From the NCBI GenBank assembly GCA_963665235.2, contig CAXXLX010000001.1, forward strand, positions 2,240,001 through 2,304,000: 64,000 nucleotides of DNA. The letters run 5' to 3'. Source of the DNA: Candidatus Poribacteria bacterium (GTDB lineage Bacteria; Poribacteria; WGA-4E; WGA-3G). Made by a program: the position numbers and the translations under genes. A model generated the notes under the pieces. It did not search any database and was not told the origin of the DNA. It saw only the letters and a list, made by a program, of their open reading frames with translations. Position 1 is the stretch's first letter. Each line of letters begins with the position of its first letter. Below are positions 1 to 17,474 of this stretch, piece by piece.

Positions 1-1677
1 CGCCTCTGGAATATTGCCTCTGGCACCCCCTTGCAGACGCTTTCCGGCCATACAGATGTTGTCTTGAGTGTTGCGTTTAGTTTAGATGGTCGGACGCTTG
101 CCAGTGGAAGTGGTGACGGCACTGTCCGCCTCTGGGATGTTACCTCTGGCACCTCTCTACAGACGCTCACAGAACACACGGATGCCGTTTTTAGCGTTGC
201 GTTCAGTCCGGACGGTCGGACGCTTGCCAGTGGAAGTGGTGACGGCACTATCCGCCTCTATGATGCAACCACAGGACAGTCTCAGCGGACACTCATAGGA
301 CATACAGATTATGTTAGGAGCATTGCGTTTAGTCCAGATAGCGGCACGCTTGCCAGTGGAAGTGACGATGGTACTGTCCGTTTGTGGGATACCGCCTTCG
401 GTCTGAACAAGCAGACGTTCGTAGGGCATACAGATTATATTTTTAGTATCGCTTTCAGTCCGAATGGTAATACCGTAGCGAGTGGGAGTTTGGATGGTAC
501 AGTCCGCCTCTGGGATACTGTCTCCGGTCAAGCGTTGCAAACGCTCGATGGACATACAAGCGGTGTGCTAAGCGTTGCGTTCAGTTCGGATGGCACGCTT
601 GCTAGTGGAAGTTCGGATGGCACAGTGCTGTTGTGGGACCCCTCACTTGCAATGACCAGCTATGCAACTGTTGGGTTTTCGCCATCGCCAGTAGAATCAC
701 CTGCTATTGGTAAAAGGTTAACCTTTTCACTTAACATTGCGGACGGGGTGGCCGTGTCAGGCTATCAGGCGAATGTGCTATTTGATACTTCTGCCCTCCG
801 CTATGTTGAAAGTGCTAATTCGGATTATTTATCCGGAGACGCTTTCACAGTGGGAGCAGTCGTTTCGGAAGGCAGTGTGACGCTTGCGGCAACGTCTCTC
901 ACTGGCGAAAGCAGCGGGGCAGGCACGCTTGCAACCATCACTTTTGAGGTTGTCGACCCCAAGGCATCTATGTTAACGTTATCTGATGTGCTCCTCACTA
1001 ACAGGGCGGGCACCGTTTCTTACGCCAAAGTTGAAATTGGGCATATAACGGCACCTATGCTCAAGACAGGAGATGTCAATGGTGACGGTGTAGTGAATAT
1101 CCAAGATTTAACACTAGTTGCCTCAAACTTCACGCGGACCGGGGAAAATGTAGCGGACATTAACGAGGATGGTATCGTCAATATCGTAGATTTGGCTTTG
1201 GTTGCATCAGGACTGGAAAATACCGCGAGTGCACCCGGAATATGGACGAGCAACGCGGCGGCACTGCCAACAAGAACGGATGTACAAGAGTGGCTACGTG
1301 AAGCGCAACAAATCGCATTGCCTGATAGGGATTTTCAACACGGTATCCTTGTGCTGCAGCAGCTTCTTGAAACGTTGTCCCCGAAAGAGACAGCACTTCT
1401 TCCGAACTATCCAAACCCGTTCAATCCAGAGACGTGGATACCGTATCAACTGTCCAAAGCCGCGGATGTCACGATTAGCATCTATGCGTCAGATGGGAAC
1501 GTTATTCGGACGTTAGCGTTAGGGCATCGGGATGCGGGGATGTGTCACAACCGCAGCCAAGCCGCGTATTGGGATGGCAAAAACGAGTTAGGCGAGTCCG
1601 TAGCGAGCGGTGTGTATTTCTACACGCTTACCGCTGGTAAATTCTCCGCCACGCGCAAAATGCTCATCCTGAAATAG
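1..1677 (+). CDS. WD40-repeat protein with cohesin-like, dockerin and FlgD-Ig C-terminal domains (5'-partial)
   Basis: Frame is open from base 1 (RLWNIASGTPLQ). GHTD..SVAFSPDG.TLASGS.DGTVRLWD repeats, dockerin DVNGDGVVNIQDL/DINEDGIVNIVDL, and an NYPNPFNPETWIPY...AAYWDG...RKMLILK tail. Confidence 0.9.
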   Translation, partial: RLWNIASGTPLQTLSGHTDVVLSVAFSLDGRTLASGSGDGTVRLWDVTSGTSLQTLTEHTDAVFSVAFSPDGRTLASGSGDGTIRLYDATTGQSQRTLIGHTDYVRSIAFSPDSGTLASGSDDGTVRLWDTAFGLNKQTFVGHTDYIFSIAFSPNGNTVASGSLDGTVRLWDTVSGQALQTLDGHTSGVLSVAFSSDGTLASGSSDGTVLLWDPSLAMTSYATVGFSPSPVESPAIGKRLTFSLNIADGVAVSGYQANVLFDTSALRYVESANSDYLSGDAFTVGAVVSEGSVTLAATSLTGESSGAGTLATITFEVVDPKASMLTLSDVLLTNRAGTVSYAKVEIGHITAPMLKTGDVNGDGVVNIQDLTLVASNFTRTGENVADINEDGIVNIVDLALVASGLENTASAPGIWTSNAAALPTRTDVQEWLREAQQIALPDRDFQHGILVLQQLLETLSPKETALLPNYPNPFNPETWIPYQLSKAADVTISIYASDGNVIRTLALGHRDAGMCHNRSQAAYWDGKNELGESVASGVYFYTLTAGKFSATRKMLILK

Positions 1678-1751
1678 TATCATAGGACCTTATGATAGCT
1701 GGAGTGCTGTTGGCTTCGCTAGAAACTGTTGGAAACCGTTGGCCTGTTGGT

Positions 1752-1846
1752 TAATGGAAACCAGAAGTCTCTGACGCGTGTCAAAAACCTGCTTAGAATC
1801 ATAACCTCTTGCTAATTGCTAATTGCCAATTGCTAATCGCTAATTT
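1752..1846. repeat. Dispersed intergenic element (copy A) with GCTAATT/GCCAATT heptamer tail
   Basis: The core GGAAACCAGA..TGACGCGTGTCAAAAACCTG.TTAGAATCA.AAC..CTTGCTAATTGC recurs inverted at ~20705-20806 and ~38400-38510. Confidence 0.75.
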
Positions 1847-1851
1847 ATACA

Positions 1852-2991
1852 ATGTTTCAGAATATATCTGAAATTCTTACATTAAGTGCTTCTGCCGCTG
1901 TGCAGTGGCTCTTTTATCGGAAACGTTTACCGAAGGATTTCACGCCTGAACGGATTCTCGTCGTCAAACTTGACCATCTTGGCGATGTGCTGTTGGCAAC
2001 ACCGGTGTGCTCCAATTTACGTCAAACATATCCGAATGCAGAACTGCACGCGCTGGCTGGCGGGTGGAGCCGTGTTGTTTTAGAGCATCACCCGGATGTG
2101 GATAAGGTGCTTGAATACAATTCACCCTTTTTTTGTCGTTCGGGAAAACCGACGCGCTTCCGGGAAGCGGTGCAGCTCTACCGAGAATTACGGCATCAAA
2201 AATACGATTTGTTGATAGAGCTCCGGGGCGATTGGCGGACTGCGGGGTTTTCGCTCCTGCGGGTTACACCGAAACGACTTGCACGGGCAACGTTACAGGT
2301 TGCCAATAGGGTAGGTTTCAGAAAGTTCAGTGGAATACACGAAACAACCCGAAATCTGGATGTGTTGAGGCAGGCAGGCATCGCAACCCCGATGCAAACG
2401 CCTACCTTCAAGGTGCCAGAAGCGGCTGAAAAGTGGGCCTCTGATTTCCTGGCGGTCCATCGGATTAACCGAGCATATCCGCTGATTGTTGTCCATCCGG
2501 GGTCGCCGGTTGCGCTCAAAAGGTGGCTGCCCGAACGTTATGCGGAAGTGGCAGATTGGTTAATTGCCCGAAAACGTGCACAAATTGTATTTGTTGGGGT
2601 ACAAGATGAAATTCCGATAGTTAATGCCATTCAAGCGCGTATGCAGGGGGAATCCATTAATATTGCTGGCGAAACGTCTGTGATAGAATTGGCATCAATC
2701 TTGCAACTAGCTACAGTGTTTATCGGTAATGATAGCGGTCCGATGCACCTCGCTGCAGCAGTCGGGACCTGGACAATCGGACTGTATGGTCCAAGCGAGT
2801 CGGCTCGCTTTGGTCCGGTGGGGGCTTGGTGTGAAACGGTTCGTGGAACTACACCGTGTCCACCGTGTTCAGGTGAATTGTGCCGATTCGGGACAGCCGA
2901 ATGCATGCAGCAGATTCAGGTATCCGATGTGCTTCAGCGGCTCACGGAGATGGATTGCCTTGATAATTCGCCGCATTCAAGTTTAATTTGA
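1852..2991 (+). CDS. Glycosyltransferase family 9 (heptosyltransferase-like)
   Basis: ILVVKLDHLGDVLL, HPG...KRW and FIGNDSGPMHLAAAVG..TIGLYGPS motifs. Confidence 0.9.
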   Translation: MFQNISEILTLSASAAVQWLFYRKRLPKDFTPERILVVKLDHLGDVLLATPVCSNLRQTYPNAELHALAGGWSRVVLEHHPDVDKVLEYNSPFFCRSGKPTRFREAVQLYRELRHQKYDLLIELRGDWRTAGFSLLRVTPKRLARATLQVANRVGFRKFSGIHETTRNLDVLRQAGIATPMQTPTFKVPEAAEKWASDFLAVHRINRAYPLIVVHPGSPVALKRWLPERYAEVADWLIARKRAQIVFVGVQDEIPIVNAIQARMQGESINIAGETSVIELASILQLATVFIGNDSGPMHLAAAVGTWTIGLYGPSESARFGPVGAWCETVRGTTPCPPCSGELCRFGTAECMQQIQVSDVLQRLTEMDCLDNSPHSSLI

Positions 2992-3016
2992 CATATTTTT
3001 GGATATAGTCTATAAT
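2988..3016 (+). promoter_or_regulatory. Consensus sigma70 promoter
   Basis: TTGACA (2988-2993), 17-bp spacer, TATAAT (3011-3016). Confidence 0.7.
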
Positions 3017-3071
3017 GTTTTCGTAGAATTCTTCATTATTTAAGCAGCGATTCAAAATGCTGTACATAAAC

Positions 3072-3118
3072 TGCACCGTTACGTGCAGTTTTTAAGGTGA
3101 GCTGCACGAAACGGTGCA
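3072..3118. promoter_or_regulatory. Tandem palindromic TGCAC-N6-GTGCA sites, putative enhancer-binding-protein UAS
   Basis: TGCACcgttacGTGCA at 3072-3087 and TGCACgaaacgGTGCA at 3103-3118. They are 31 bp apart and lie upstream of a sigma54 motif. Confidence 0.65.
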
Positions 3119-3170
3119 GTTTTTCGATACGGATGTCGGGATTATGGGCAAATAACCTAACTTTTACTAT

Positions 3171-3186
3171 TGGCACGAAACTTGCA
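3171..3186 (+). promoter_or_regulatory. sigma54 (-24/-12) promoter
   Basis: TGGCACGAAACTTGCA matches TGGCAC-N5-TTGC. Confidence 0.8.
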
Positions 3187-3235
3187 TATAGTTCCACATA
3201 ACATCAAAACTTAATTTTTTTGTGAGGTAAAACGA

Positions 3236-4717
3236 ATGAGTGCAAAAAGAATGTCCGGAGCCTTAATGACTTCTATTATGCTTCACGTAGCGATAGCGTT
3301 GGTGGCAGGTTTTTACCTGGTCACTAAAACGCAAAAATTCAAGGACCTCGTTGGTGCTGAAGTGCTACAGACGAAAGAAGCCCCGAAGCCTAAGGTTCGG
3401 AAACCTATAATCAAACCTGTTATTAAACCTACACTTCCTACGCAAAATACCGTTGTGGTTGAACAAGTTCAGGTGCAACCGCGTGTAACGACCGCACTTG
3501 CCGCGAAACCAACGGATTTCCAACCGCAGACGGTGCTGGAATTTTCAAATCAACCTGTTAAGGTAAATGCACCGATTAATCCGAATGTGCCGAAGGTTGT
3601 GACCCCGAACACGCCTGTTCCGGAGGTAGTTACACATACCGATTTGCCTGTATCCGACGCGCCTTCAGCTTTGGCGTTTGCTGGTCCGGCTGCGAATCCA
3701 CCTTCAGCGGGTCCCGCTCACATTGCGCGGGGTGTTGCTGGAAGTCCTGTTCAGGTGAAAGTCACCTTTGAACGTCCGCCCGGTCTTGCGATGGTTGCCA
3801 ACGTAGGTGCTGAGGGCGACGCGCTCGGTAATGTCATAGAGAATATTACGCTCGGAAACGTTGAAGTGCCACCTCTGCCCAGAGGCGAACCCGGTGGTCG
3901 TGTTATCGGCAAGGGCCGTGATATTCGCGGTGTTTTCCGTTTCACACGTATTCGCCACACGCTCTCTGACTGGTGGGCAGACGCTTCCTCCCTGAACGCG
4001 CTTGCCAAATGGCTCAACGAGAAAACCAAAATCAAAACGGACATGAACGTTGAAGGTGGCGCGCTGAAACTGACAGATGCGAACCTACTAAAGACCCCGT
4101 TAGTCTTCCTGACAGGTCACGACCCATCTCTTGTGAAGGAGAAAGGGTTGCTCGGTAGTCAGCATGGTGGCGGTAAAATGGATAACCGTTTCACCGAAAC
4201 CGAAGCCGCTGGACTGCGTAAATACCTCGTTGAAAAAGGTGGATTTCTCATCTTTGACGATTGTGGTGTAAATGCACCTGCACAGGCAATGGTTCGTCTG
4301 TTCCTACAGCAGATGCGGTATGTGATGCCTGAGCATCAAATCGAACGTATCTCCAACGACCATGAGATTTATGACAACTTCTACGAAATGGGCGGTCCCC
4401 CTGTCGGTTACGATATTTTCTGGTGGGGTACTAAACCGAAGAAGCGTAACTTCCTTGAAGGCGTTTCGGTTGGTGATAAGTTGTCCGTTATCGTTGTTCG
4501 CCGAGATTACATGTGTGCGATGGAGGCAGTAAGTCTTCCGACGCGTGCGGTTCATTATTCACCCGGTGTGTATCGTTTCATGACAAACGTAGTTGTGTAT
4601 GCGTTGACACACGGTAACATCGCTGATTACTCCGGCTATGTGCCTGAAGACACCTTAGCGAAACGTGAGCTTCCGACACGTGCACCCGAAGCTGCGAAAA
4701 TCGGTGCCGTTGAATAA
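3236..4717 (+). CDS. Membrane-anchored Pro-rich linker + DUF4159-like domain protein (copy 1)
   Basis: N-terminal TM helix (SIMLHVAIALVAG), TonB-like P/K/V-rich linker, and C-terminal PLVFLTGH..LRKYLVEKGGFLIFDDC..HEIY..FMTNVVVYALTH typical of DUF4159. Confidence 0.75.
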   Translation: MSAKRMSGALMTSIMLHVAIALVAGFYLVTKTQKFKDLVGAEVLQTKEAPKPKVRKPIIKPVIKPTLPTQNTVVVEQVQVQPRVTTALAAKPTDFQPQTVLEFSNQPVKVNAPINPNVPKVVTPNTPVPEVVTHTDLPVSDAPSALAFAGPAANPPSAGPAHIARGVAGSPVQVKVTFERPPGLAMVANVGAEGDALGNVIENITLGNVEVPPLPRGEPGGRVIGKGRDIRGVFRFTRIRHTLSDWWADASSLNALAKWLNEKTKIKTDMNVEGGALKLTDANLLKTPLVFLTGHDPSLVKEKGLLGSQHGGGKMDNRFTETEAAGLRKYLVEKGGFLIFDDCGVNAPAQAMVRLFLQQMRYVMPEHQIERISNDHEIYDNFYEMGGPPVGYDIFWWGTKPKKRNFLEGVSVGDKLSVIVVRRDYMCAMEAVSLPTRAVHYSPGVYRFMTNVVVYALTHGNIADYSGYVPEDTLAKRELPTRAPEAAKIGAVE

Positions 4718-4727
4718 AAGTAGTGTT

Positions 4728-4782
4728 TTGGCTCATGTTAGAGGCTTGCGCGCTTTTTACATGAGCCAACCCCTCTTTCTTT
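4728..4782 (+). terminator. Hairpin / intrinsic terminator after DUF4159 copy 1
   Basis: TTGGCTCATGT ... ACATGAGCCAA stem followed by a pyrimidine/U-rich run. Confidence 0.55.
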
Positions 4783-5012
4783 GACACAAAGGCATCTCTA
4801 TCTTACAATGAAAATAGTGTGATAAAACATCAATCGGAACTGGAAAGTCAACTCAAACATGTGAACGCAGAAATAGAGAAAATCAAAATAGTTTTGAAAA
4901 CGCAATTCAACCTGCACATCTAACTATTTGATAAAATGTCAAAAAAAATGTTGCGCAGAAAATGTAGCTCCGTTTATAATACTTGAACAGGTGAGAAATC
5001 ACTTCAGAGTGA

Positions 5013-5041
5013 TTGACATATTTTGTGTTGTTCTGTAAAAT
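5013..5041 (+). promoter_or_regulatory. sigma70-like promoter of the cassette
   Basis: TTGACA-17-TAAAAT. A second one, TTGACA-17-TACAAT, lies at 4781-4809. Confidence 0.55.
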
Positions 5042-5170
5042 GACAACAAGGTGTTCTCAATGCACGGCAAAGGTGCGTTACACCGGGGCACGTTTCCCCC
5101 CTTGGGAGGAGCGCTGACAGTGCTAACAGCTTTAAAAGCACCATCCGCGCGTAGCCCATATCATAGTATA

Positions 5171-6099
5171 ACCCAAGTTGCTAGTAATAAATCCCTTTGA
5201 TATCCATGGGATTTGCTGTATAATGTCTTTGTGACAATAAAACAAAAGGAGAAACCCCATGGATTTAACCATTGTAGCAGTTTACACAATTTGTGACGAC
5301 CTTTTAATCTCAATAGGACATAAAACCCATCCCAAGGCACAAATGACAGATGCTGAAGTGATGACAACTGCGATTATCGCAGCACGGTATTTTGGAGGCA
5401 ATCATCAAAGAGCCTGTAGTGTTCTGAAAACCTTCGGATACATTCCGAATATGTTAGGGTATTCCCGATACAATCGGAGGCTTCATAAGATACCGCATTT
5501 ATTTCAAACACTTTTTGGATATATGTCGGAGGTATCTAAAGCCACTAACCCGAATGGTATTTATTCGATTGACACCTATCCGGTATCCGTATGTGACAAC
5601 ATCCGGCGGATTAGCCGCTGCCGTCTCTATCAAGGCGAACAATGGCGTGGCACCATCCATAGTAAACACCGCCACTTTTATGGTCTCAAAGTGCATCTGA
5701 TGGTGACCGAAGCGGGACACATCGTTGAGGTTTTCTTCACCCCCGGCAAGTGGAACGATGTCCGGGGGATGCGATACTTCCCATTTGATGTGCCTGATGG
5801 TTCGGTGATATATGCCGATAAGGCATATTGCAACTATGCGATTGAAGACGCACTCCAGGATGTAGGGATTACTTTCAAACCGCTTCGGAAGAAGAATCTC
5901 AAGCGTCAGTTTCCGCCTTGGGAGGTCTCCTTACAACATTATTACAGAAAACGGGTTGAAGTGACAAATAGTCTGATTACACAACTCTTACCCAAGTCAA
6001 TACATGCAGTGACACCGACAGGTTTTGAGTTGAAAGTGTTTTTATTTATCATCGCAACAAATGGACAACAACTTTATGGCGATAACTAGCAACTTAGGT
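5171..6099 (+). mobile_element. IS982-family insertion sequence
   Basis: Terminal inverted repeats ACCCAAGTTGCTAGTAAT / ATAACTAGCAACTTAGGT. 7-bp target duplication TAGTATA at 5164-5170 and 6100-6106. Confidence 0.9.
5259..6089 (+). CDS. IS982-family DDE transposase
   Basis: MTDAEV, SIDTYPV..C, FYGLKVHL, YADKAY and RKRVE motifs. Confidence 0.9.
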   Translation: MDLTIVAVYTICDDLLISIGHKTHPKAQMTDAEVMTTAIIAARYFGGNHQRACSVLKTFGYIPNMLGYSRYNRRLHKIPHLFQTLFGYMSEVSKATNPNGIYSIDTYPVSVCDNIRRISRCRLYQGEQWRGTIHSKHRHFYGLKVHLMVTEAGHIVEVFFTPGKWNDVRGMRYFPFDVPDGSVIYADKAYCNYAIEDALQDVGITFKPLRKKNLKRQFPPWEVSLQHYYRKRVEVTNSLITQLLPKSIHAVTPTGFELKVFLFIIATNGQQLYGDN

Positions 6100-6458
6100 T
6101 AGTATAGTATGATAGGGCTGGTTTTCATGGTATCACAAGCTTGTGATAATTGAAATATGAAAGCCAGCGTTGCCCGAAGGTTAGAGTCGGTAGCGACTGT
6201 TTCGTTTCACTTTTTCCTGCCCCCCCCTCTCACCTTTAGGGACTGTCAAAATCAAAACAGACCGGTGAAAGTTAGATACATTTACTTTCACACATCAAAC
6301 TGATAAAGGAGACTTTCAAGTGTTATTTTTAAGGAATATGATGGACAATCACAAGATATTAACTGCAATCCTTGTGATTTACTTCTGTTTATTTTTGGGA
6401 GTATATCAGGCCGTTGCTATATTTTGGAAAATCATTGGTGTTATAGTAGATTTTAGAA

Positions 6459-6998
6459 TTACGTATACATATTGATAATCTCGGTGAGTGACTTATCTGC
6501 GTTATATTTCCGGAGCCGCTTAATGTTGGCGAAGTCCTGTTCAATCGGATTGTAGTCCGGAGAATACGGGGGCAAAAACAAAAGGGTCGCCCCTGTTGCT
6601 TCTATCAGTTCTCTACTTCGCGCCGTTTTGTGAAAAGTCGCATTGTCCATTATCACTGTGTGCGATGCTGTGAGATGCGGGCATAAGTCTTTTGATAACC
6701 AAGTGTTGAAACGCTCGGCATTGCAGCTGCCTTTGAATAAGGTGTGTGCCGCAAACTTCCCCTCTATTCGTGCAGCTATCATATTCGTTTTGGGATGTTT
6801 TTGACCGGTAACTAATGCACGAACAGGGACACCTATAGGGGCATACCCATAAGGTCTAAAAGTCTCTGGCATAAAACTGCATTCGTCCACAAAAACTAAG
6901 GACTTCCCGTTCTGTTGTTCTATTTGCAACTGTTTTTGATAGGTTTGACGCTTTTGAGGGCAGCGCTCCTTATACCCTATTGTCGCCCGAAGCGGCAA
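6459..6998 (-). CDS. IS630 transposase orfB (DDE), fused to orfA by programmed frameshift
   Basis: VFVDE, VIMDNATFH and FLPPYSPDYNPIE motifs. An A9G run at ~7009-7018 on the minus strand sits in the overlap region. Confidence 0.9.
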   Translation of the reverse strand: MPLRATIGYKERCPQKRQTYQKQLQIEQQNGKSLVFVDECSFMPETFRPYGYAPIGVPVRALVTGQKHPKTNMIAARIEGKFAAHTLFKGSCNAERFNTWLSKDLCPHLTASHTVIMDNATFHKTARSRELIEATGATLLFLPPYSPDYNPIEQDFANIKRLRKYNADKSLTEIINMYT

Positions 6999-7317
6999 CA
7001 GCGGAAGACTTTTTTTTTCGCGTAAAACCCATTTTTTTCAATGTATACCAAATACAGAAGGTGGATACCTCGAAGTGATTTGCCCGCTCTGCGAGTGTTT
7101 GATCTGGAAAATCGGTAGCGTGTTTTCGGAGTGCCTCAACAGAGAGTGCCCGGGGGCCTCGGGGGCCCGGTTTTTCATAAGTGAAAGGGTCTTCGGCAGA
7201 GAGCCACCGGTAAATGATAGTGCGGGAAACAGAAAAGCGTTTCGATGCTTCTGTTTTACTGCCACCTGCTTCAATAAAATCTAAGACGCGTTTACGTAAA
7301 TCCTTGGAATATCTCAT
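6970..7317 (-). CDS. IS630 transposase orfA (HTH)
   Basis: MRYSKDLRKRVL...ASKRFSVSRTIIYRW. Ends at TRKKK over an A-run slippery site. Confidence 0.9.
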   Translation of the reverse strand: MRYSKDLRKRVLDFIEAGGSKTEASKRFSVSRTIIYRWLSAEDPFTYEKPGPRGPRALSVEALRKHATDFPDQTLAERANHFEVSTFCIWYTLKKMGFTRKKKSSAVAASGDNRV

Positions 7318-8259
7318 AATATATGAAGTATACCAAATGCAGAAAAAAATGTCAACGTATTTCCATAATCTACTATATCTTAGGCATTATAACTGTCATA
7401 CAACTTATTCAGGAGGCGATAAAGTCTTTGGAAGAAAAGATTGCAGCAAAGGAGGCTGAAATTACGAGGTTAGATAAGCTCGCGGACTGGTGGTTTGATG
7501 AGTATAAAAGAAGGCGTGCTGTAATGAAGCAACGGGAACGGGAAGTTAATTCGGCACGGAGAGCTTACAATGCAGCCGTAACTGCTTATAATTCTGCGGT
7601 GACGGCAGAAAAGGCTGCTGGACGTTCTTATAGGACTGCCGCTCATTATGCTCAAATGGCACAAAGAGATTATATGAATCATGTTCAGTGGTGTTCTACG
7701 TGTCGGGGCTCCATGTTATGTCCGATTGGACAGAATCTACATGCGGCTTGGCAATCGTGGGAAAAAGCGAAAAAAGATGCGAAGGTGGCTTGGGATAACG
7801 CAAAGGCTCAGGTCAAGTCTGCAAGAAGTGCGAAAAAAGCTGCGAAGGAAACATTAGACATAGCCCTGTTCAATTTAGGTTCTGCAAGGATGCTGGCTAA
7901 TGCAGCATTAGCTCAGGCGCGTGCTCTTAACAAAGCAGTTGACAAATTACGTGCCGAACTTAAACCTCTGATGGTAAAAAAAGCAATAAAAGATGCTGAG
8001 CTTGCAAAGGCTATGGGTGACTTAGCGGAAGCGAAACGAAAGCTTGACGAGGCGGAACGGGATTATCCTGACCAGTGGCGCGAATCTATGAAAGATCCTA
8101 ATTTTAGGCAGGATGTTGATAGGATTAGAAATTTTTAGATTCATTAACGGTGAACCTTGAAAGGTCACATTTTCTGTCCGAGCGATCTCCGCATTGTGAC
8201 GCACCTCACAGAGCGTCGGGACTCGGAGTTCTCTCGGACACGAGAAAGGAGTATAAAAA

Positions 8260-9645
8260 GTGAAACTTGTTGTTTTTACGGGGATTGGGATTATAATATT
8301 GGCAATCTTCTGTGTGATTCTATTTACACGTCTTGAAAGAGATTCTGAAGTTCCGGTAGATATTTCTACAAAAAATGCGGAGACCGAAGTTACTGATGTC
8401 AATTCGCTTATCAATTCGCTTCCGAAACCTAAAATTCCTGTGGGGTGGTCAGAAGACTTTTGGGTAAAAGAGTTTGATGAGGAACTGGCAAAAGAGGCCG
8501 CACTTGAGGCAGCACAGTGGAAAAAGGAGTTTTATGAACACACAGAGAGCATGTTCGCGAAGAAGCGTTCAGCTCTTTCGGATGCGGATTTGGCGGAAAT
8601 AGACTCCATGTTATCCAAATTTGAATCTTTAGAGAACATGTCTGAATCGGCTATTATTGACACGCTTTTGAGTTTTTATCCTGATAGCAGGCTCCTTGAT
8701 GAGGAGCTGCGTCAGCGTTCGCATGAGGGGCGTCGTCAGGGTTTGATTGAATATTATAGAGGTTTAGATGGACTTTCTGAACCGGATGCCCCCGAATTAA
8801 CCAAAGATCAAAAGTTGCAATTTATGGTGTATCTTGTTCAGGATGATATATCTACTGAAAGGAAAATAAAGAGAGAAGTTGCGGAAGAGGCGCGGCGCGA
8901 TCAAGCGTTAAAAGAATCTGACCCCGATCTCTATTTTGATAAGGAGGAGGTAGAGCTTGCTGATACCATACGTGAAGTAGAAGAGTCCCTTAGGGAAGCG
9001 GAGGAATCTGGCGACACGGAAATGGCTGAGACATGGCGTAATCATTTATCAATATTGCATGAGATGGAGGAAGGTCAAGATGATCGTAGAGAATTAATCA
9101 CGAGTATTATTAAGGGAACGTCGGAAGAGTATTTCTTAAAGGATCATCCCATATTTAAGGATCTTCCTCAATTGGATGACAATCTCGTGGAACGGGCGCA
9201 GGAGTTGATAGATGAGGTCTTGGATCAGTTGGAACGGGGCATGTCAGATGACGTGCCGTCAGATGTTTTTTCTGATGATTCGGAGAGTGCCCCCCCGTCA
9301 TCCGTCCCCGCAAAGGGTTCTGTTTCGGCACCGTCTGGCTCGGATTTTGAACCGTTGCTGAAGAATATAGGCGAGAAGTATTTTGATGTTGTTCTGTCCC
9401 GGCATCTCTCTGAAAAAGAGTTTGAGAAGTATTTTCCATCCTCTCAATATGATCGGGAGATGTTGAAGTCTCGGACGAGAGAAATGCAGAAAACGCTTGT
9501 CTCCGAAATCCGTAAAGTGATGCGGAATATGAACGATGTCTCGGAGGCAACGAAACGGCAACGGGTCAAAGATTTTGTCATGAAAAATTACGACAAAGAC
9601 TTCGCCGAGGCGGTGCTGCGTCAGTTGAACGCTGACGACAAATAG
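8260..9645 (+). CDS. Hypothetical N-terminally membrane-anchored acidic helical protein
   Basis: GAAAGGAG RBS and GTG start. Single N-terminal TM helix, then an E/D-rich helical body. Confidence 0.75.
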   Translation: MKLVVFTGIGIIILAIFCVILFTRLERDSEVPVDISTKNAETEVTDVNSLINSLPKPKIPVGWSEDFWVKEFDEELAKEAALEAAQWKKEFYEHTESMFAKKRSALSDADLAEIDSMLSKFESLENMSESAIIDTLLSFYPDSRLLDEELRQRSHEGRRQGLIEYYRGLDGLSEPDAPELTKDQKLQFMVYLVQDDISTERKIKREVAEEARRDQALKESDPDLYFDKEEVELADTIREVEESLREAEESGDTEMAETWRNHLSILHEMEEGQDDRRELITSIIKGTSEEYFLKDHPIFKDLPQLDDNLVERAQELIDEVLDQLERGMSDDVPSDVFSDDSESAPPSSVPAKGSVSAPSGSDFEPLLKNIGEKYFDVVLSRHLSEKEFEKYFPSSQYDREMLKSRTREMQKTLVSEIRKVMRNMNDVSEATKRQRVKDFVMKNYDKDFAEAVLRQLNADDK

Positions 9646-9727
9646 CGGTGCGTCTCGGACAAACCCCTAATTTTATAGGCAGGTAGCTGTTGCGTTACCT
9701 GCCCAACTCTATAGGAGAAATTTGGTT

Positions 9728-10501
9728 ATGAAACGTTGTAAATTTTGGATGTCCCTCTTTTTACTGGGACTGCTTTTTGGCGTTGGTGCTGCCGATGCGA
9801 ACCCTGTCGTCAATGTTGACCCCGAAGTAGAGATGTTGCGGTGGCAGATTGGAGTGCTTGAAACATGACGTGATAGTAAAGTCGCACAAAAAAATTTACT
9901 GGTGCTGAAGCGAGATGCGGCAAAATCGGTGCTTCAATCTCTTTCGGCCTTGCTCTCTAAGGTGAACAAGTCCATCGCAAGCGCCAAAGCTGCGTTGCTG
10001 CGGGCACAGAACGATGCCGAGCGTGCGGACTGGGCATCCGTGATTGCGAAGTTAGAGAAATCGCGTCTAAAGTTGAGGTCTCAATACCACACGGTCGCAC
10101 ATAAGCTATACGATTATGAGGATAGGATCGCCTCATGTGACCGCACGATTGCCTACATTGAATCACTCATTCAGGAACTCAATGCCCTCTTAGTGACACC
10201 GGATAGGCCTGCGAGTTTCAGTGTGTCGAACGGTGTTGCGCGCGGGAGCGTTGAGTTGTCGTGGACAGCGGCTCCCGTGCCGAATGGCGGGTTGACAATC
10301 CTCGACTACGAATACCAATATCAGCGGCAGCTCAGTAGCCGCCGGTGGGGCCCTTGGTCTTCGTGGTCTTCAGCGGGAACAGACATGTTCGAGTTGATAG
10401 GCGGGTTGCACAGTCGGGGCCGGTATGCTTTTCGGATGCGTGCCGTGAATGGCTTAGGCCCGGGCACGACGACCGGTCAAATAATCATACGTACTCGATA
10501 G
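9728..10501 (+). pseudogene. Secreted coiled-coil + fibronectin type III protein with an in-frame TGA at 9866-9868
   Basis: AGGAG RBS, signal peptide MKRCKFWMSLFLLGLLFGVGAADA. The frame continues through one TGA into ORF 9902-10501, which carries Fn3 motifs VELSWTA..NGG..I..YEYQY and YAFRMRAVN..G.G. Confidence 0.8.
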
Positions 10502-10663
10502 TCGCAAACTTCTAAACATTTTACAGGCAGGTCTCCGTTTTGGGTATCTGTCTTTTTTCTTTTACAGTAGCATTTGCACCGGTGCATCCTTTCGAATTAT
10601 AATTTGTTAAGTGTGTCCAATTGTGTTATACTGCTTACAAAACTTTTCTAAAAGGGATACCCC

Positions 10664-10912
10664 ATGACAGAAGGCAACCGTGCATTATTAATCGAGGGAC
10701 TCAAATCAATGTTAACCGCAGTTTACACCCTCGACGAAGATGACGACTCGCGAGACGCATTAGAAGGTGTTACATCAGAAATCGTAAATATCTACAATAA
10801 GGCGTGTATCTTCAATCAAGAAGATAGAGTCGAACTCTTAGAACATGTTATGAAGTATGATCCGCCATTAACCGATGAAGCAGAGATACTGAAAAGGCTA
10901 AAAGGGAGATAA
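10664..10912 (+). CDS. Small hypothetical protein
   Basis: 82-aa helical ORF with an AAAGGG RBS-like sequence. Confidence 0.55.
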   Translation: MTEGNRALLIEGLKSMLTAVYTLDEDDDSRDALEGVTSEIVNIYNKACIFNQEDRVELLEHVMKYDPPLTDEAEILKRLKGR

Positions 10913-11030
10913 AGAATGTAAAAATCTGCGTCCGCCCCGCACCAGACAAGAGACGCGGTTTCCGAACCTCGCCAGCGGGTGTCTCCGAATATGACTCTCA
11001 GATCGGCAGACGTGCCCACACGGAACACAC

Positions 11031-11471
11031 ATGGAAAAGAGAGAGAAACTCCAATACTGGTCTTGGGAAGAATTTGGAACAGGCACGGGCTCCGTTTATC
11101 TTTATTATTTTCAAGACGAAAAGAACGAACAGAAATATCAGGGAAAATCCGTTTGGGCTTGCAAAGTCGGATATGCCGAGGGGGATGCCCACAAGAGAGT
11201 CGCGCAGCAATTAAAGAAAATAGACCCCGACTACGCTTTTGAAAAAAAGGAACGACCGATCCTCCCGATTCTTTTTAAATCCGATACGCCGAGAAGACTG
11301 GAAACACAAATTCACAAAATTCTTCAGGCTTTGGGCAGAAAAATAGATACAGAGAAAAGGCACGAATGGTACATCACGGGGCATGAGTGGTATCTCACCA
11401 ATCCAAACGAGGTGCTGCAAATTTACTTTTTTATTGTAGATTTTCAAAATTACGCATGGCACGACAGATAA
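11031..11471 (+). CDS. GIY-YIG superfamily (T5orf172/MUG113-like) protein
   Basis: GSVYLY, CKVGY..G.A.KRV..Q, LETQIH..L and EWY.TN motifs. Confidence 0.7.
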   Translation: MEKREKLQYWSWEEFGTGTGSVYLYYFQDEKNEQKYQGKSVWACKVGYAEGDAHKRVAQQLKKIDPDYAFEKKERPILPILFKSDTPRRLETQIHKILQALGRKIDTEKRHEWYITGHEWYLTNPNEVLQIYFFIVDFQNYAWHDR

Positions 11472-11693
11472 AAGTTGTTCAGATGGACGCACACCGCACT
11501 TTTACAGCGGCACCTGTGGTTTGACTCACAGAAAGAACCGTGTGAAAGGGTTACCCGTCAAAATCTGCTATTCCTGATACAGATGACAGAAGCCCCTGAT
11601 ACAAAAGATCAGATACCGGACGGTGTCGCGTCGCGATAGCCGTTCAATTATACGGATGTCGGGATTATGGGCAAATAACCTAACTTTTACTAT

Positions 11694-11709
11694 TGGCACG
11701 AAACTTGCA
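11694..11709 (+). promoter_or_regulatory. sigma54 promoter (copy 2, lacking the upstream UAS)
   Basis: TGGCACGAAACTTGCA. Confidence 0.75.
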
Positions 11710-11758
11710 TATAGTTCCACATAACATCAAAACTTAATTTTTTTGTGAGGTAAAACGA

Positions 11759-13240
11759 ATGAGTGCAAAAAGAATGTCCGGAGCCTTAATGACTTCTATT
11801 ATGCTTCACGTAGCGATAGCGTTGGTGGCAGGTTTTTACCTGGTCACTAAAACGCAAAAATTCAAGGACCTCGTTGGTGCTGAAGTGCTACAGACGAAAG
11901 AAGCCCCGAAGCCTAAGGTTCGGAAACCTATAATCAAACCTGTTATTAAACCTACACTTCCTACGCAAAATACCGTTGTGGTTGAACAAGTTCAGGTGCA
12001 ACCGCGTGTAACGACCGCACTTGCCGCGAAACCAACGGATTTCCAACCGCAGACGGTGCTGGAATTTTCAAATCAACCTGTTAAGGTAAATGCACCGATT
12101 AATCCGAATGTGCCGAAGGTTGTGACCCCGAACACGCCTGTTCCGGAGGTAGTTACACATACCGATTTGCCTGTATCCGACGCGCCGTTAGCTTTGGCGT
12201 TTGCCGGTCCGGCTGCGAATCCACCTTCAGCGGGGCCCGCTCACATTGCGCGGGGTGTTGCTGGAAGTCCTGTTCAGGTGAAAGTCACCTTTGAACGTCC
12301 GCCCGGTCTTGCGATGGTTGCCAACGTAGGTGCTGAGGGCGACGCGCTCGGCAATGTCATAGAGAATATTACGCTCGGAAACGTTGAAGTGCCCCCGCTG
12401 CCCAGAGGCGAACCCGGTGGTCGTGTTATCGGCAAGGGCCGTGATATTCGCGGTGTTTTCCGTTTCACACGTATTCGCCATACGCTTTCTGACTGGTGGG
12501 CAGACGCTTCCTCATTGAACGCGCTTGCCAAGTGGCTCAACGAGAAAACCAAAATCAAAACGGACATGAACGTTGAAGGTGGCGCGCTGAAACTGACAGA
12601 TGCGAACCTACTAAAGACCCCGTTAGTCTTCCTGACAGGTCATGACCCAGCTCTTGTGAAGGAGAAAGGGTTGCTCGGGAGTCAGCATGGTGGCGGTAAA
12701 ATGGATAACCGTTTCACCGAAACCGAAGCCGCTGGACTGCGTAAATACCTCGTTGAAAAAGGTGGATTTCTCATTTTTGACGATTGTGGTGTAAATGCAC
12801 CTGCACAGGCAATGGTTCGTCTGTTCCTACAGCAGATGCGGTATGTGATGCCTGAACATCAAATCGAACGTATCTCCAACGACCATGAGATTTATGACAA
12901 CTTCTACGAAATGGGCGGTCCCCCTGTCGGTTACGATATTTTCTGGTGGGGTACTAAACCGAAGAAGCGTAACTTCCTTGAAGGCGTTTCGGTTGGTGAT
13001 AAGTTGTCCGTTATCGTTGTTCGCCGGGATTACATGTGTGCGATGGAGGCAGTAAGCCTTCCCACGCGTGCGGTTCATTATTCACCGGGTGTGTATCGTT
13101 TCATGACAAACGTGGTTGTGTATGCGTTGACACACGGCAACATCGCTGATTACTCCGGCTATGTGCCTGAAGACACCTTAGCGAAACGTGAACTTCCGAC
13201 ACGCGCACCCGAAGCTGCGAAAATCGGAGCCGTCGAATAA
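11759..13240 (+). CDS. DUF4159-like domain protein (copy 2)
   Basis: 493 aa. Differs from copy 1 at two residues (DAPS>DAPL and HDPS>HDPA). Confidence 0.75.
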   Translation: MSAKRMSGALMTSIMLHVAIALVAGFYLVTKTQKFKDLVGAEVLQTKEAPKPKVRKPIIKPVIKPTLPTQNTVVVEQVQVQPRVTTALAAKPTDFQPQTVLEFSNQPVKVNAPINPNVPKVVTPNTPVPEVVTHTDLPVSDAPLALAFAGPAANPPSAGPAHIARGVAGSPVQVKVTFERPPGLAMVANVGAEGDALGNVIENITLGNVEVPPLPRGEPGGRVIGKGRDIRGVFRFTRIRHTLSDWWADASSLNALAKWLNEKTKIKTDMNVEGGALKLTDANLLKTPLVFLTGHDPALVKEKGLLGSQHGGGKMDNRFTETEAAGLRKYLVEKGGFLIFDDCGVNAPAQAMVRLFLQQMRYVMPEHQIERISNDHEIYDNFYEMGGPPVGYDIFWWGTKPKKRNFLEGVSVGDKLSVIVVRRDYMCAMEAVSLPTRAVHYSPGVYRFMTNVVVYALTHGNIADYSGYVPEDTLAKRELPTRAPEAAKIGAVE

Positions 13241-13387
13241 AAATAGTGTTTTGGCTCATATTAGAGACTGTGTGCGATTTTTTTGTAAAGACTCCGGCCA
13301 GAAAGATAGCGTCTTCATAAAAAAATCGCACACGCTTGTAGCAGAACCGAATGATAAATCTTATCTTGTCTACAGGAGGATAGATTT

Positions 13388-14083
13388 ATGACACACAAAG
13401 TTTATGTAGGAATTGGGCTCCTGATGATCCTGATTATCGGTATTGTCATCTTCCTACTGAATCACAATGTAGACACCGAACCTGAAGTTATCTACAGCGG
13501 GAAGGTTGTAGACTCTAAGGGGAAGGAACTACCCCCCGCGAAACCGGGGTTTGAATGGGTTCAGCATGAGGACCACTTTCACGAAGTGCGTGTCTCTGAA
13601 CAGAACGTGCCAACGGACACCGTGTCCGATAAGACACCGCTGTCATCAGAACCTGTAGGGGATGAGGAACCCATGCCCTCTGTTGTTCCCCCGAATTATC
13701 CGAACCCTGATAACCCCGTTGCGGCATTGCGCGAATACCTATCAAAACGTGGCCATTGGAGTGCTGAGTGGATTCCCGATTTTCCGGTAGAGGATACAGA
13801 AGCCGCTAAATTAGCACACAATGTCCTAATCATGCTAGTGCGCGAACATACAGAGGATAAAACATTGGATGCTGCTTGGAGCATCGCTGCGGAGGAAACC
13901 CGCCAAATGCAAGCGGATTATGGAAAAGAAATTATAGAAATTGTAAAGAGCCAACGGATGCTACAATATCCTCCCGCCGGCGATGATATCCGTAAACGCT
14001 TTCAACGCCTTTTGGATCTATCTAAATTCAATTGGGTATTCTTAGACGCGTCGGATGTTAACCCTGAAGAGCGGAATTGGTAA
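13388..14083 (+). CDS. Hypothetical membrane-anchored protein with HEDHFH motif
   Basis: AGGAGG RBS, N-terminal TM helix, PPAKPGFEWVQHEDHFHEV. Confidence 0.75.
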   Translation: MTHKVYVGIGLLMILIIGIVIFLLNHNVDTEPEVIYSGKVVDSKGKELPPAKPGFEWVQHEDHFHEVRVSEQNVPTDTVSDKTPLSSEPVGDEEPMPSVVPPNYPNPDNPVAALREYLSKRGHWSAEWIPDFPVEDTEAAKLAHNVLIMLVREHTEDKTLDAAWSIAAEETRQMQADYGKEIIEIVKSQRMLQYPPAGDDIRKRFQRLLDLSKFNWVFLDASDVNPEERNW

Positions 14084-14095
14084 GGAGGTAGAGAT

Positions 14096-14842
14096 ATGTT
14101 TTGTGCTTATTTTACAAACCGATGGATGATAGGTGGTTTTTGTTTCCTGATTGTTTTCGGTATTGCTTGCTACTTCTGGGACCAGCACGAGCTGGCTCCC
14201 TATAAACAACAAGCTGTAGAAAACGCAGAAATGTTACGCCAATCGGAACGCGCCCAAAAATCTGACACGGCGCGTGAGGCGGAACAGGCGGTATTCGACG
14301 CACCTGCGGAACGCGCAACGTCTACCGATAAGGGCGGCGACCATTGGCACAAGGAGTCACGCCCAGAGGCTCCAATGGCACAAGTCCCCTCAGAATTACC
14401 AGCGACTGATGGCACACACACCCTAGAGGTGCCTGTCTCACCGTTCGGACTTGGCCCCTATCCTGAAGTGCCATTAGATTATCCAAGTGATGTCCTATGG
14501 AATGCGCCGGAAGTTCCAGCACACTTTTCTAACAAAACAGTGAAAAGTATTGAACTCATAGACCGTGTCCTTGTGAAGTTATGGACAGAAGGAAACAAAG
14601 ACTTCCGTGGGGGAAGCACCTATAACGGCAAAGTCTATCCGCACTACCATAACACCGTCTATGTTCGTTTTGGTGAATATAAATTGCCTGATGGGACAAC
14701 GAAGCGATACCCAGTGCGTATAAAATCAGGACCTCAGGTTGTCTACAGCCGGGAAGATCTTTTAAACCCGCCGCCTCACCTTCGCGTTCTAGATTTAGAT
14801 TCGTCTGGTATTGCTCCGTATCAATTCCTTGACCTCCCTTAA
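14096..14842 (+). CDS. Hypothetical membrane-anchored protein with GGDHWH motif
   Basis: AAGGAGG RBS, N-terminal TM helix, GGDHWH and VSPFGLGPYPEVPLDYP motifs. Confidence 0.75.
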   Translation: MFCAYFTNRWMIGGFCFLIVFGIACYFWDQHELAPYKQQAVENAEMLRQSERAQKSDTAREAEQAVFDAPAERATSTDKGGDHWHKESRPEAPMAQVPSELPATDGTHTLEVPVSPFGLGPYPEVPLDYPSDVLWNAPEVPAHFSNKTVKSIELIDRVLVKLWTEGNKDFRGGSTYNGKVYPHYHNTVYVRFGEYKLPDGTTKRYPVRIKSGPQVVYSREDLLNPPPHLRVLDLDSSGIAPYQFLDLP

Positions 14843-15006
14843 ATCTTAATGGGTGACAGCTATCATTTCAAACAGGCCTTGTGCTGTGTAGGTAAAGAGG
14901 GTTTTATGTGGCGAGCATAGCGGCATCTGCGGTATGGTCAAGGTATTCATAAGGTTCATGATTTTTTCAGTTAACGTTAACCTCAATGTCCGTGAAGTTT
15001 TTCAAC

Positions 15007-15279
15007 TCACAGTTTGTCACTCTTTGCTGTATTACAAGGTTTACAACGTAAGGTGAGGTTTTCCCATACCGTTAATCCGCCTTGTGAATACGGTTTTATA
15101 TGGTCGGCATCAAGTTGGCGGAAACCTGCCGGTCCAGAAAAAACCTGCTTGCAGTCTGGACACACATATCCGTCGCGGGTATCGTCATAGTTAATAAGGA
15201 AATATGCCTGTTTCCACATTTTTGGAAAATGACGAGCCCGTGGATCACATGAAGGGAGGAGAGACAGAATGTTGCTCAA
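15007..15279 (-). CDS. Small HNH endonuclease
   Basis: CPDC...DHIKPYSQGG.T..ENL.L.C..CN..K. Overlaps the stop of the upstream gene (ATGA coupling). Confidence 0.85.
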   Translation of the reverse strand: MSNILSLLPSCDPRARHFPKMWKQAYFLINYDDTRDGYVCPDCKQVFSGPAGFRQLDADHIKPYSQGGLTVWENLTLRCKPCNTAKSDKL

Positions 15280-16517
15280 CAGTATTCTTCCACAATTCGG
15301 GACAAAAGGAGTTTTGTCATATCACATTGAGCTTTCTGTCCGCGTTCCCCTTTCCAACGTCCTCTTGATTCTGGGTACCCGCCCTCTTTTTCCAACCATT
15401 TTTCACCTACCTGGCGAGGTGTTTCAATAAACCCTGCAATCGCAATCCATGCATTAGGACTGAGTTGAGACGGTTCAATTTCCAATTCGACAGCTGCCCC
15501 AATCAGGAGTGCCATCTGTTTGTATTTGTCAACACTAACCCCGGGCATACCGCGTCGGAGGATAGCATGGAGCCACCTAACGAAGTTGTCGAACTCATCT
15601 TCTAGTCCATTTCTATATGTAGGAAACACAGGCGTTCCGCCTTGTATATCCGTGAATTGCAGTTGGGCACAATAGATATCTAGTGCCTCTTCTGTCGAGC
15701 CGTGAAATATCAAGGGGAGATGCTTCATTGAAGTGGGTGAACAGATAAGTTGATTCAATTTCTCTCTGTGCAAAAACGTGAGGTACCACAAGACCATTGC
15801 GGAGGGGGTCTGTCCTTTTGCTCGGTCTTTTCCGTCCCACCAATCTTTCCAGAGTTCCCATGCGTCAGGATATTTTTCCCACGGATTCGCTACCCCTTTT
15901 TCAGACGCAGCTTGTATCATTCGTTTTGCAGCGGGGGTGTCTGCATAAATTCCAGCGAGGCGGATGAAGTATACACACTTGGATTCGCTGTAATAGGAGA
16001 GCCGAATATCTTGCGCGGTCAAAGGCGTGCCGCCTTCGTTGATGCGCCGAAATATCTCAAGTTTGGTTGAAAGTTGAAGGCTCGGCGGAAGGTAAATAAT
16101 TGTCAGGGGATAATCGTTAAAAACATTCTGAAGCGTTTTGGGTATCTCCGAAAACCTTTTTCCGCTGTAGTGCACACTTTCTGGTGAGAAATAGTTAATA
16201 GCTCCACTTGCTACCAGGCAAAATTCGTCCTGTGCATATTTCAGGATTGTACTCAACCGTTGTTGTCCATCGACAACTTCGATTGTGCCTGTCTCATGAT
16301 TCTCCGAGAAAAAGAGAGACGGTGTCGTCAGATTATTCAGCAATGACTCGATGAAAAGTGATTCTTTCCGGTCATCCCATTGTTCTGCATCGCGTTGGTA
16401 ATCCGGAATGACTATCCGACCGTTGTTCAAGCGGAGAATGATAGACTCTACAGTTTCACTCTGTGCTCGCGTTGCTTCCCTGACGATTGGGCCGATTTCC
16501 AAATTGTTTACAGCCAT
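15276..16517 (-). CDS. DUF262 (GmrSD/ParB-Srx-like) domain protein
   Basis: IPDYQR, FIESLL, VVDGQQRL and IFRRINEGG motifs. Confidence 0.85.
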   Translation of the reverse strand: MAVNNLEIGPIVREATRAQSETVESIILRLNNGRIVIPDYQRDAEQWDDRKESLFIESLLNNLTTPSLFFSENHETGTIEVVDGQQRLSTILKYAQDEFCLVASGAINYFSPESVHYSGKRFSEIPKTLQNVFNDYPLTIIYLPPSLQLSTKLEIFRRINEGGTPLTAQDIRLSYYSESKCVYFIRLAGIYADTPAAKRMIQAASEKGVANPWEKYPDAWELWKDWWDGKDRAKGQTPSAMVLWYLTFLHREKLNQLICSPTSMKHLPLIFHGSTEEALDIYCAQLQFTDIQGGTPVFPTYRNGLEDEFDNFVRWLHAILRRGMPGVSVDKYKQMALLIGAAVELEIEPSQLSPNAWIAIAGFIETPRQVGEKWLEKEGGYPESRGRWKGERGQKAQCDMTKLLLSRIVEEYC

Positions 16518-16618
16518 GTGATTCTCCTGACAAAGGACGTATTCAACGTGAGTTTGAAAAGAGTTTCACCCACAGCGTTCCCTATTACTTTTAGCAAAAG
16601 ACCGCACAAAGTAGTAGT

Positions 16619-17220: not shown

Positions 17221-17474
17221 TTAAAAACTTCCGTATCACAAATCCAAATACCTAATGGCATTATATAAAATTAAATTAAAAATGTCAAATTAAATTTTTC
17301 AGTTTTAAAAAGGAAACTTCCGGACTGCGATATTTTCGCTTTCTTGTTCCATCACGGTGACATAGGATTCCCTTGGCTAATGAAAAATTTAACCCGCGTG
17401 GCCATTACGTTCATTAAAACAATTGCACACACCTTTTGCATGAACCACTATTGTTCCATAAGTTATTTCTGACC

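Follow-up and report, generated by a model that had tools for sequence, protein, structure and literature searches.

A duplicated DUF4159 membrane-protein gene around a transposon-rich interval in a poribacterial genome

The window analysed here is a 64-kb stretch of the genome of a sponge symbiont, Candidatus Poribacteria (contig C1, positions 2240001–2304000), and its subject is a gene for a DUF4159 protein that is present in this stretch twice, as a whole-gene direct repeat. The source genome is a metagenome assembly of 5.3 Mb in 4 contigs (C1–C4), 92.6% complete and with 5.65% contamination. Reading from left to right, a GT9 glycosyltransferase gene is followed by the first copy of the DUF4159 gene (copy A), an interval with two insertion sequences (IS) and several further open reading frames (ORFs), the second copy (copy B), and another group of genes. 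The flank on the GT9 side is termed U, the interval between the copies X and the DNA after copy B Y. The features are listed in Table 1. The repeat is probably a genuine chromosomal segmental duplication that came about by ordinary recombination in a transposon-rich variable region and was altered by later conversion or recombination.

Table 1. Features at the DUF4159 repeat (positions are those of the window)
Feature	Position	Strand	Support
GT9 (heptosyltransferase-family) glycosyltransferase gene	1852..2991	+	Pfam PF01075, 8.4e-37
Two palindromes CTGCMC-N6-GTGCAG, putative sigma-54 activator (enhancer) sites, 31 bp apart	3071–3088 and 3102–3119	+	
Repeat copy A: core sigma-54 promoter (3171–3186), DUF4159 ORF (3236–4717), left arm of the terminator hairpin	3127..4746	+	
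Terminator-like hairpin after copy A, left arm inside and right arm outside the repeat	4728..4769	+	RNA fold −26.6 kcal/mol, z = −4.8
IS982-family insertion sequence, transposase at 5259–6089	5169..6101	+	NCBIfam NF033520, 154.4 bits (cut-off 130)
IS630-family insertion sequence, ORFs at 6970–7317 and 6459–6998	6442..7377	−	Pfam HTH_Tnp_IS630 and DDE_3
Two-gene module X271 (7323–8138) and X461 (8260–9645), N-terminal hydrophobic segments	7323..9645	+	
X199 (weak fn3), X82 and T5orf172-domain gene (11031–11471)	9902..11471	+	Pfam fn3 4.4e-4, T5orf172 4.2e-9
Repeat copy B: core sigma-54 promoter (11694–11709), DUF4159 ORF (11759–13240), orphan left hairpin arm, without the upstream palindromes	11650..13269	+	
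Different long hairpin after copy B	13270..13334	+	RNA fold −29.9 kcal/mol, z = −3.6
Y231 and Y248, N-terminally anchored, lineage-expanded families	13388..14842	+	no match in Pfam or NCBIfam
HNH nuclease (15007–15279) and GmrSD_N/NsnA-like gene (15276–16517), defence-type pair at the edge of the region	15007..16517	−	

The two copies and their control regions

Comparison of the window with itself gives a direct repeat of 1617 bp, positions 3127–4743 and 11650–13266, with an offset of 8523 bp, and both length and spacing agree exactly with the initial annotation of this DNA. The copies are identical at 1588 of the 1617 positions. The first 537 bp (3127–3663 in copy A), estimated by eye as about 535, show no difference at all. 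The remaining 1080 bases are 2.7% diverged and hold 29 substitutions, of which 27 fall in the ORF and two lie past the stop codon. Twenty-five of those in the ORF are synonymous and two are non-synonymous (S144L and S298A); the initial annotation had the number of non-synonymous changes right and the total, given as about 25, too low. Homology between the copies fades 26–29 bp past the copy A stop codon (4715–4717), close to the 25 bp first given. Each copy carries an ORF of 493 codons. A search of the whole 5.3-Mb genome shows exactly two copies, and they are the sole such pair. In positions 1–20000 the only other repeat family is a 126-bp tandem array at 1–504; it consists of four head-to-tail units with 61–80% identity to the first, which are WD40 repeats of a gene that runs off the start of the window.

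The chance of finding no difference in the first 537 bp is P = 8e-6, and a permutation test gives p = 0.00018 for an identical run of such length. The uneven spread of differences is thus not a matter of chance. Over codons 143–493, the synonymous divergence (dS) between the copies is 0.105 and the non-synonymous divergence (dN) is 0.0025. The dN/dS ratio, a comparison proposed in the initial annotation, is approximately 0.024, which denotes strong purifying selection on both copies. When the 27 variable codons are polarised with outgroup sequences, the state of copy A is favoured at 18 and that of copy B at 9, a result that is not decisive; thus neither copy resembles a decaying pseudogene.

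Both copies match the Pfam family DUF4159 (PF13709) with 100.0 and 100.7 bits, far above the cut-off of 25.9, and both display a sigma-54-type −24/−12 element, TGGCACGAAACTTGCA (TGGCAC-N5-TTGCA), 65 bp ahead of the ATG. The −24 element TGGCAC and the −12 element TTGC stand at a 5-base spacing in each, and the earlier description of the repeat as a sigma-54 promoter joined to a DUF4159 gene agrees with these sequences. For comparison, 80 related loci were fetched, 44 of them GT9-linked, and 47 GT9-linked gene copies were examined. A sigma-54 element of this kind precedes 46 of these 47 copies in a regular-expression search and is seen by eye before the 47th (locus L075).

The two palindromes end 8 bases before the start of the repeat and are situated just outside of it; their pattern has no other matches in the 64-kb window. 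A pair of such palindromes, approximately 98 and 67 bp upstream of the −24 element, is found at 40 of the 47 GT9-linked gene copies, and a single site at 5 more. Copy B has no palindrome within 135 bp upstream and is the only one among the 47 with none. The genome carries a gene for RpoN (PF04552 at C1:1876116) as well as 11 strong PF00158 matches that represent sigma-54 activator genes. The arrangement shares with NtrC-type sigma-54 promoters the −24 GG/−12 GC spacing and two dyad sites that lie approximately 70 and 100 bp upstream and are separated by about three helical turns. The palindrome CTGCMC-N6-GTGCAG resembles the NtrC site, and a putative activator would bind to it.

Promoters of the sigma-54 type need an activator bound at upstream sites. 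We infer from this that copy A would be a regulated gene and that copy B would have lost its normal control. A scan of the segment between 11471 and 11650, on the strand of the T5orf172 gene, found no terminator-like site, and copy B might be read through from that gene.

At the 3′ end, each copy is followed by a different hairpin, as was first reported, and RNA folding supports both. Copy B contains the left arm of the A-type hairpin only and ends in the hairpin loop. Orthologues in relatives all show a strong hairpin 40–60 nt past the stop codon. At its 5′ end, copy B begins directly past the position of the second palindrome. Both ends of copy A are thus intact, whereas copy B is cut at each end beside a palindromic structure, which favours copy B as a secondary copy of an A-like unit. 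Copy A appears to be the resident orthologue in its ancestral context, i.e. placed after the GT9 gene and equipped with the palindromes, the sigma-54 core promoter and the complete hairpin. Copy B appears to be secondary and truncated, rather than an allele equivalent to copy A with a cassette of its own.

Read evidence and arrangement in related genomes

Seven public runs contain the stretch or part of it, and four of these (X1, X3, X6, and X7) were compared in the form of Logan short-read contigs. The junction of U with the repeat is crossed by a contig of run X6 (1890–3156). The junction of copy A with X is crossed by a contig spanning 4678–5375 and that of X with copy B by one spanning 10813–11679, both in runs X3 and X6, and the region where copy B joins Y is likewise represented in contigs of these two runs. 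None of them shows a difference from the window. In run X3, the depth of the unique parts is 25–29 and that of the shared 5′ part of the repeat 51.6; the corresponding values in run X6 are 14–20 and 34.2. The initial annotation had raised the collapse of two strain haplotypes as a danger to be checked by coverage. Such a collapse is unlikely, since the junctions have the depth of a single copy and the shared part roughly twice as much. In addition, if two strains with common outer flanks had been mixed, X should be covered less deeply than these flanks; no such drop is seen, and a mixture is disfavoured.

The same contigs show an empty site for the IS630 element: a contig that skips 6442–7375, with TA at both ends, has full depth in X3 and X6, whereas its depth in X7 is low. 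Since the element is missing from the X3 and X6 contigs, these runs are not just the data from which the assembly was made. The duplication is present in them with the IS630 site empty; thus the duplication is older than the IS630 insertion.

In run X1, contigs of 359–386 bp reveal strains with 6 to 24 differences from the window (about 2–6%). A joint in this run between 4768 and 14110 (the A-type hairpin to Y248) was not used, because its shorter side has only 23 letters and the genome contains further copies of the beginning of Y248. Joints from 5100–5155 to 6105–6109 have low depth and short sides, and agree weakly with the boundaries of the IS982 element only. Parts of the stretch uncovered in X1 and X7 were not counted as absent.

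The DUF4159 gene is present in all 41 genomes searched in the order, mostly in several copies. In 44 of the 80 fetched loci, and in 16 of 17 single-copy loci examined, the orthologue has a GT9 gene upstream of it on the same strand. The best DUF4159 orthologue shows 77–84% protein identity, whereas the GT9 proteins of those loci show only 50–70%. Downstream, the first gene in 20 of the 44 GT9-linked loci is one for a xylose-isomerase-like TIM-barrel protein. In one more (making 21) this gene follows a 94-amino acid ORF that overlaps the end of the DUF4159 gene, and in five it is found past one or two inserted genes. Seventeen loci have other first downstream genes, and in one the contig ends before any downstream ORF. 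The gene types found downstream in relatives include a PIG-L deacetylase, a GFO/IDH/MocA oxidoreductase, an ECF sigma factor, a redoxin, an ABC-2 permease, a NUDIX protein, and a ribose-5-phosphate isomerase.

Variability of the downstream genes, which the initial annotation had expected, is seen in one group of loci and concerns ordinary gene types. This group consists of 19 loci with 82–84% identity and a small ORF (c5) between the GT9 gene and the DUF4159 gene. They display 14 kinds of first downstream ORF and also nine kinds of ORF upstream of GT9; therefore both sides of the conserved block are fluid. In the window genome, the usual downstream genes (xylose-isomerase-like and GFO oxidoreductase) are situated 2 Mb away, at C1:4306969–4309001, and c5 is absent, so this genome has been rearranged on both sides of the gene. 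The earlier idea that the DUF4159 protein is the constant component of a system with variable partners is not supported by this comparison, given the ordinary downstream genes in the 44 loci and a flank upstream of GT9 that varies as well.

Duplication of the gene is also found elsewhere. Locus L130 (7469–11725) shows an independent tandem duplication with a unit of 2112 bp, parts of which are 80–96% identical; the unit includes the 3′ end of the GT9 gene, the palindromes, the promoter and the terminator. Older adjacent gene pairs are present in 9 of the 80 loci besides L130. One genome (G018) has three copies in a row and another (G006) has two copies, at 84%, in different places. The DUF4159 gene has been duplicated repeatedly in Poribacteria.

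Origin of the repeat

Bacterial segmental and tandem duplications can be remodelled by deletion and homogenised by gene conversion. The locus has in common with them whole-gene direct repeats, double depth, mosaic tracts of identity, and IS elements nearby. It differs from typical cases in that unique DNA separates the two copies, which are spaced 8.5 kb apart, that dS reaches 0.105 in the 3′ part, and that one breakpoint splits the core promoter from the enhancer sites. According to the reading as a segmental duplication, copy B would arise as a 1.62-kb secondary copy carrying the core promoter and the ORF only. The likeliest route would be either a tandem duplication of the 8.5-kb unit 3127–11649 followed by deletion of the second X, or the copying and insertion of a 1.62-kb segment. 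A single crossover with an 8.5-kb circle would also fit, and the data favour none of these three routes decisively.

Under any route, an identical 5′ tract beside a 2.7%-diverged tract needs a further step, either gene conversion or recombination with a diverged allele. The 537 identical and 1080 diverged bases would then reflect later gene conversion between the copies, or recombination with the diverged allele of a related strain. Because the mosaic identity fits the latter, homology within the gene was probably used for recombination. To this extent the proposal in the initial annotation that the gene acts as a recombination anchor is supported; the dedicated exchangeable-cassette locus attached to it is not.

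Several points weigh against a segmental duplication. The synonymous divergence of 0.105 is large for a recent duplication within a genome, which is why the extra recombination step is needed, and the outgroup polarisation (18 codons to 9) does not mark copy B as decaying. No genome of the same genus is present among the 41 relatives and the 176 Poribacteria genomes searched. A scan of metagenome contigs gave 15 loci, the closest at 80% identity, and thus no comparator from before the duplication. With neither a same-genus genome nor a metagenome contig closer than 80%, the order of events is not reconstructable. The short-read contigs cannot phase across the 537 identical bases, and an 8.5-kb circle (copy A with X) beside a U-B-Y chromosome, one per cell, would match the junctions and depths. 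There is also strain-level redundancy in the assembly, hence mixed strains in the data: contigs C3 (34 kb) and C4 (17 kb) duplicate segments of C1 at approximately 99% identity, and the terminal ~47 kb of C1 match the end of C2 in reverse with 98.5–99.3% identity.

The likeliest of the alternatives, though still unlikely, is a Campbell-type addition, which is the model of the initial annotation in generic form. By this account a circle from a related strain, with core promoter, DUF4159 allele, terminator, and X, was added by one crossover within the gene. A single crossover of an 8.5-kb circle with the resident gene would produce exactly this structure, in which, as in Campbell integration, two direct copies enclose an insert. 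The 3′ parts, 2.7% apart with nearly all changes synonymous, are like alleles of related strains, strains differing by about 2–6% do occur in run X1, and the 537-bp identical stretch would be the favoured place for the crossover. However, X holds no replication gene or integrase to make or maintain a circle, and neither a circle nor integration machinery was found at the locus. A crossover alone does not create 537 identical bases. The resident copy would, in addition, have had a truncated terminator before the event, and the donor arrangement was not found in the 176 Poribacteria genomes or the metagenome contigs.

It is quite improbable that the layout is an assembly artefact or reflects an episome, i.e. 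that the chromosome has one copy and that the second copy and X, from another strain or a circle, were threaded in by the assembler. The metagenomic origin, the contamination, the haplotig-like contigs and the inability of the short contigs to phase across the repeat would allow it. Against it, in two samples that, unlike the assembly, lack the IS630 copy, the depth is the same for U, X, and Y and twice as high for the shared part, and the X-to-promoter junction is physically present in the contig spanning 10813–11679. If two strains with U and Y in common were mixed, X would also be less deep. Finally, the 4-contig assembly presumably rests on long reads, which would easily span a 1.6-kb repeat at 98% identity.

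A further proposal, for which the odds are poor, is that in Poribacteria the highly conserved, sigma-54-controlled DUF4159 gene serves as a homology anchor that needs no recombinase. Circles carrying an allele and cargo would integrate by single crossover, and new genes would be captured after the gene. If this were true, the repeated duplications and the varied downstream neighbours in one genome group would be its footprints, and copy B would be a differently regulated copy, e.g. one read through from the cargo genes.

Least probable of all is a dedicated exchangeable-cassette locus, in which the DUF4159 gene would be the anchor of an envelope system whose downstream partners are swapped between strains: the recurrent duplication of the gene, the 14 kinds of first downstream ORF among the 19 c5 loci and the four N-terminally anchored flanking proteins speak for it, but the downstream genes of relatives are housekeeping or metabolic, one and the same neighbour comes first in 20 of the 44 GT9-linked loci (21 with the overlapping-ORF locus) and past one or two genes in five more, the flank upstream of GT9 varies too, the X271–X461 module occurs without a DUF4159 gene nearby, there are no recombinase and no repeated recombination sites, and copy B is without the enhancer sites. 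Polymorphic toxin/rhs loci with orphan cassettes and integron cassette arrays resemble this locus in that a conserved segment is repeated and the genes behind it differ from copy to copy. In contrast to them, what is repeated here is an entire gene, nearly identical in both copies, instead of a conserved 5′ segment with variable 3′ tips, and toxin-immunity pairs, integrase and attC-like sites are missing. There is no dedicated cassette-exchange machinery at this locus.

Flanking genes, the DUF4159 protein, and a candidate regulon

No integrase or site-specific recombinase was found among the ORFs in 3236–16517 with Pfam, NCBIfam, PADLOC, and PHROGs; what these scans gave was DDE transposases, the HNH nuclease and the GmrSD_N protein only. 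The absence of an integrase stated in the initial annotation is thus correct, whereas the two DDE transposases (IS982 and IS630 families) had been overlooked. The repeats of 1–20000 likewise include no recombination sites repeated at cassette borders. The IS982 element has 20-nt terminal inverted repeats at 5169–5188 and 6082–6101. The IS630 element has 32-nt inverted repeats, a TA target duplication that is seen via the empty site, and two further copies in the genome at 97%. Its insertion is polymorphic between samples. An IS-like repeat of ~1.4 kb is present in the genome in at least 12 copies.

X271 and X461 give no family match in Pfam or NCBIfam. Matches to X461 are found in 30 of the 176 Poribacteria genomes, representing 4 of 31 genera, with up to eight per genome; its last ~90 residues are the most widely conserved. 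The two genes occur together in five fetched loci of other Poribacteria genomes, with no DUF4159 gene within about 10 kb. Genome G119 has this module of ~3.3 kb twice, with 90–95% identity between the two, and its DNA is continuous where the window has IS982 and IS630; both IS elements are therefore insertions into the module. The module is dispersed, with several copies in some Poribacteria genomes (e.g. L144:7721–11026 and L145:8237–11200). The view of the interval as a variable cassette is not borne out, since X comprises the IS982 and IS630 elements, a module found in multiple copies elsewhere with no DUF4159 gene nearby, and a T5orf172 gene. The guanine plus cytosine content of X is slightly lower than that of the genome (42–47% vs 47.6%), a difference too slight to give a clear sign of foreign origin.

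Runs X3, X6, and X7 each show an alternative form of the segment 10211–10813, where X199 ends and X82 starts, with ~600 bp skipped or replaced. Its depth in X3 and X6 is about 40% of the local value, and it represents a within-population variant.

The flanking genes had been described as encoding exported or N-terminally anchored proteins. From their translations this is so for X271, X461, Y231, and Y248, all of which have N-terminal hydrophobic segments, while X199, X82, and the T5orf172 protein have none. PADLOC and PHROGs give no meaningful match for X271, X461, X82, the T5orf172 protein, Y231, or Y248. Y248 (14096–14842) has 14 further tblastn matches in its own genome, eight of them full-length, and in this family the first ~80 codons and a few upstream bases are conserved at the DNA level (75–85%). 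The GmrSD_N ORF (Pfam 9.5e-24, PADLOC NsnA 1.7e-42) overlaps the HNH ORF, which resembles PtuB.

The 493-amino acid DUF4159 protein consists of an N-terminal membrane helix, a proline/lysine/valine-rich spacer of ~150 residues and a folded part. An AlphaFold2 model of the C-terminal 309 residues, made from 75 diverse sequences, has a mean predicted local distance difference test score (pLDDT) of 86.1; a full-length model made from 45 close orthologues was discarded (pLDDT 42.1). The folded part matches PDB 4I66 (Foldseek E = 8.5e-11, template modelling score 0.78 on the target; wider profile E = 4.6e-36), and a profile of close orthologues gave no match in PDB. Weaker matches are to glutamine-amidotransferase-like folds, ThuA-like proteins, and the N-terminal domain of IFT52. 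At E ≤ 0.001 there are matches to 421 cluster representatives among 1.84 billion.

The 4I66 entry is Hoch_4089 of Haliangium ochraceum, which belongs to the same Pfam family as the window protein in addition to matching its fold. It is an uncharacterised stand-alone domain of 209 residues, whereas the window protein adds the anchor, the proline-rich spacer of ~150 residues, and an extra beta-rich segment before the domain. The TonB-like linker of the initial annotation is apt in so far as a membrane anchor and a proline/lysine-rich spacer are alike in the two; a TonB C-terminal domain was not found, and Pfam gives DUF4159 only. The protein is predicted to be anchored in the membrane by a single pass and to have a DUF4159 domain whose fold is like that of glutamine amidotransferases. 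Judging from the anchor, the spacer and the GT9 neighbour, it probably has an envelope role as part of a sigma-54 regulon. The literature searched, seen in part, contained no functional study of DUF4159.

Sigma-54 elements with two like palindromes are also found in the same genome at C1:739032, C1:2382051, C1:1589663, and C1:3322840. The genes behind these paired sites encode two WD40 beta-propeller proteins with hydrophobic N-termini, a TPR protein, and a 181-amino acid protein without a family match; one of the two WD40 proteins shows a weak Por_Secre_tail match. The WD40 gene at C1:1589663 appears orthologous to a gene beside GT9 in many relatives. An element with one palindrome, at C1:3354113, precedes a gene for a YibE/F membrane protein. 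In the partly seen literature on Poribacteria and sigma-54, the only match concerns a Janthinobacterium sponge pathogen, and the part seen of that on Poribacteria transposases and duplications contained nothing on this locus.

Thus the striking whole-gene repeat is real and is best explained by common processes, i.e. duplication, IS insertion, and gene conversion or homologous recombination. The DUF4159 membrane protein is among the most conserved of its neighbourhood. What the analysis yields of greater use, as a by-product, is the conserved sigma-54 control region together with a possible regulon: on the strength of their sequences, the palindrome-paired promoters are a candidate regulon for the "eukaryote-like" repeat proteins of sponge symbionts.

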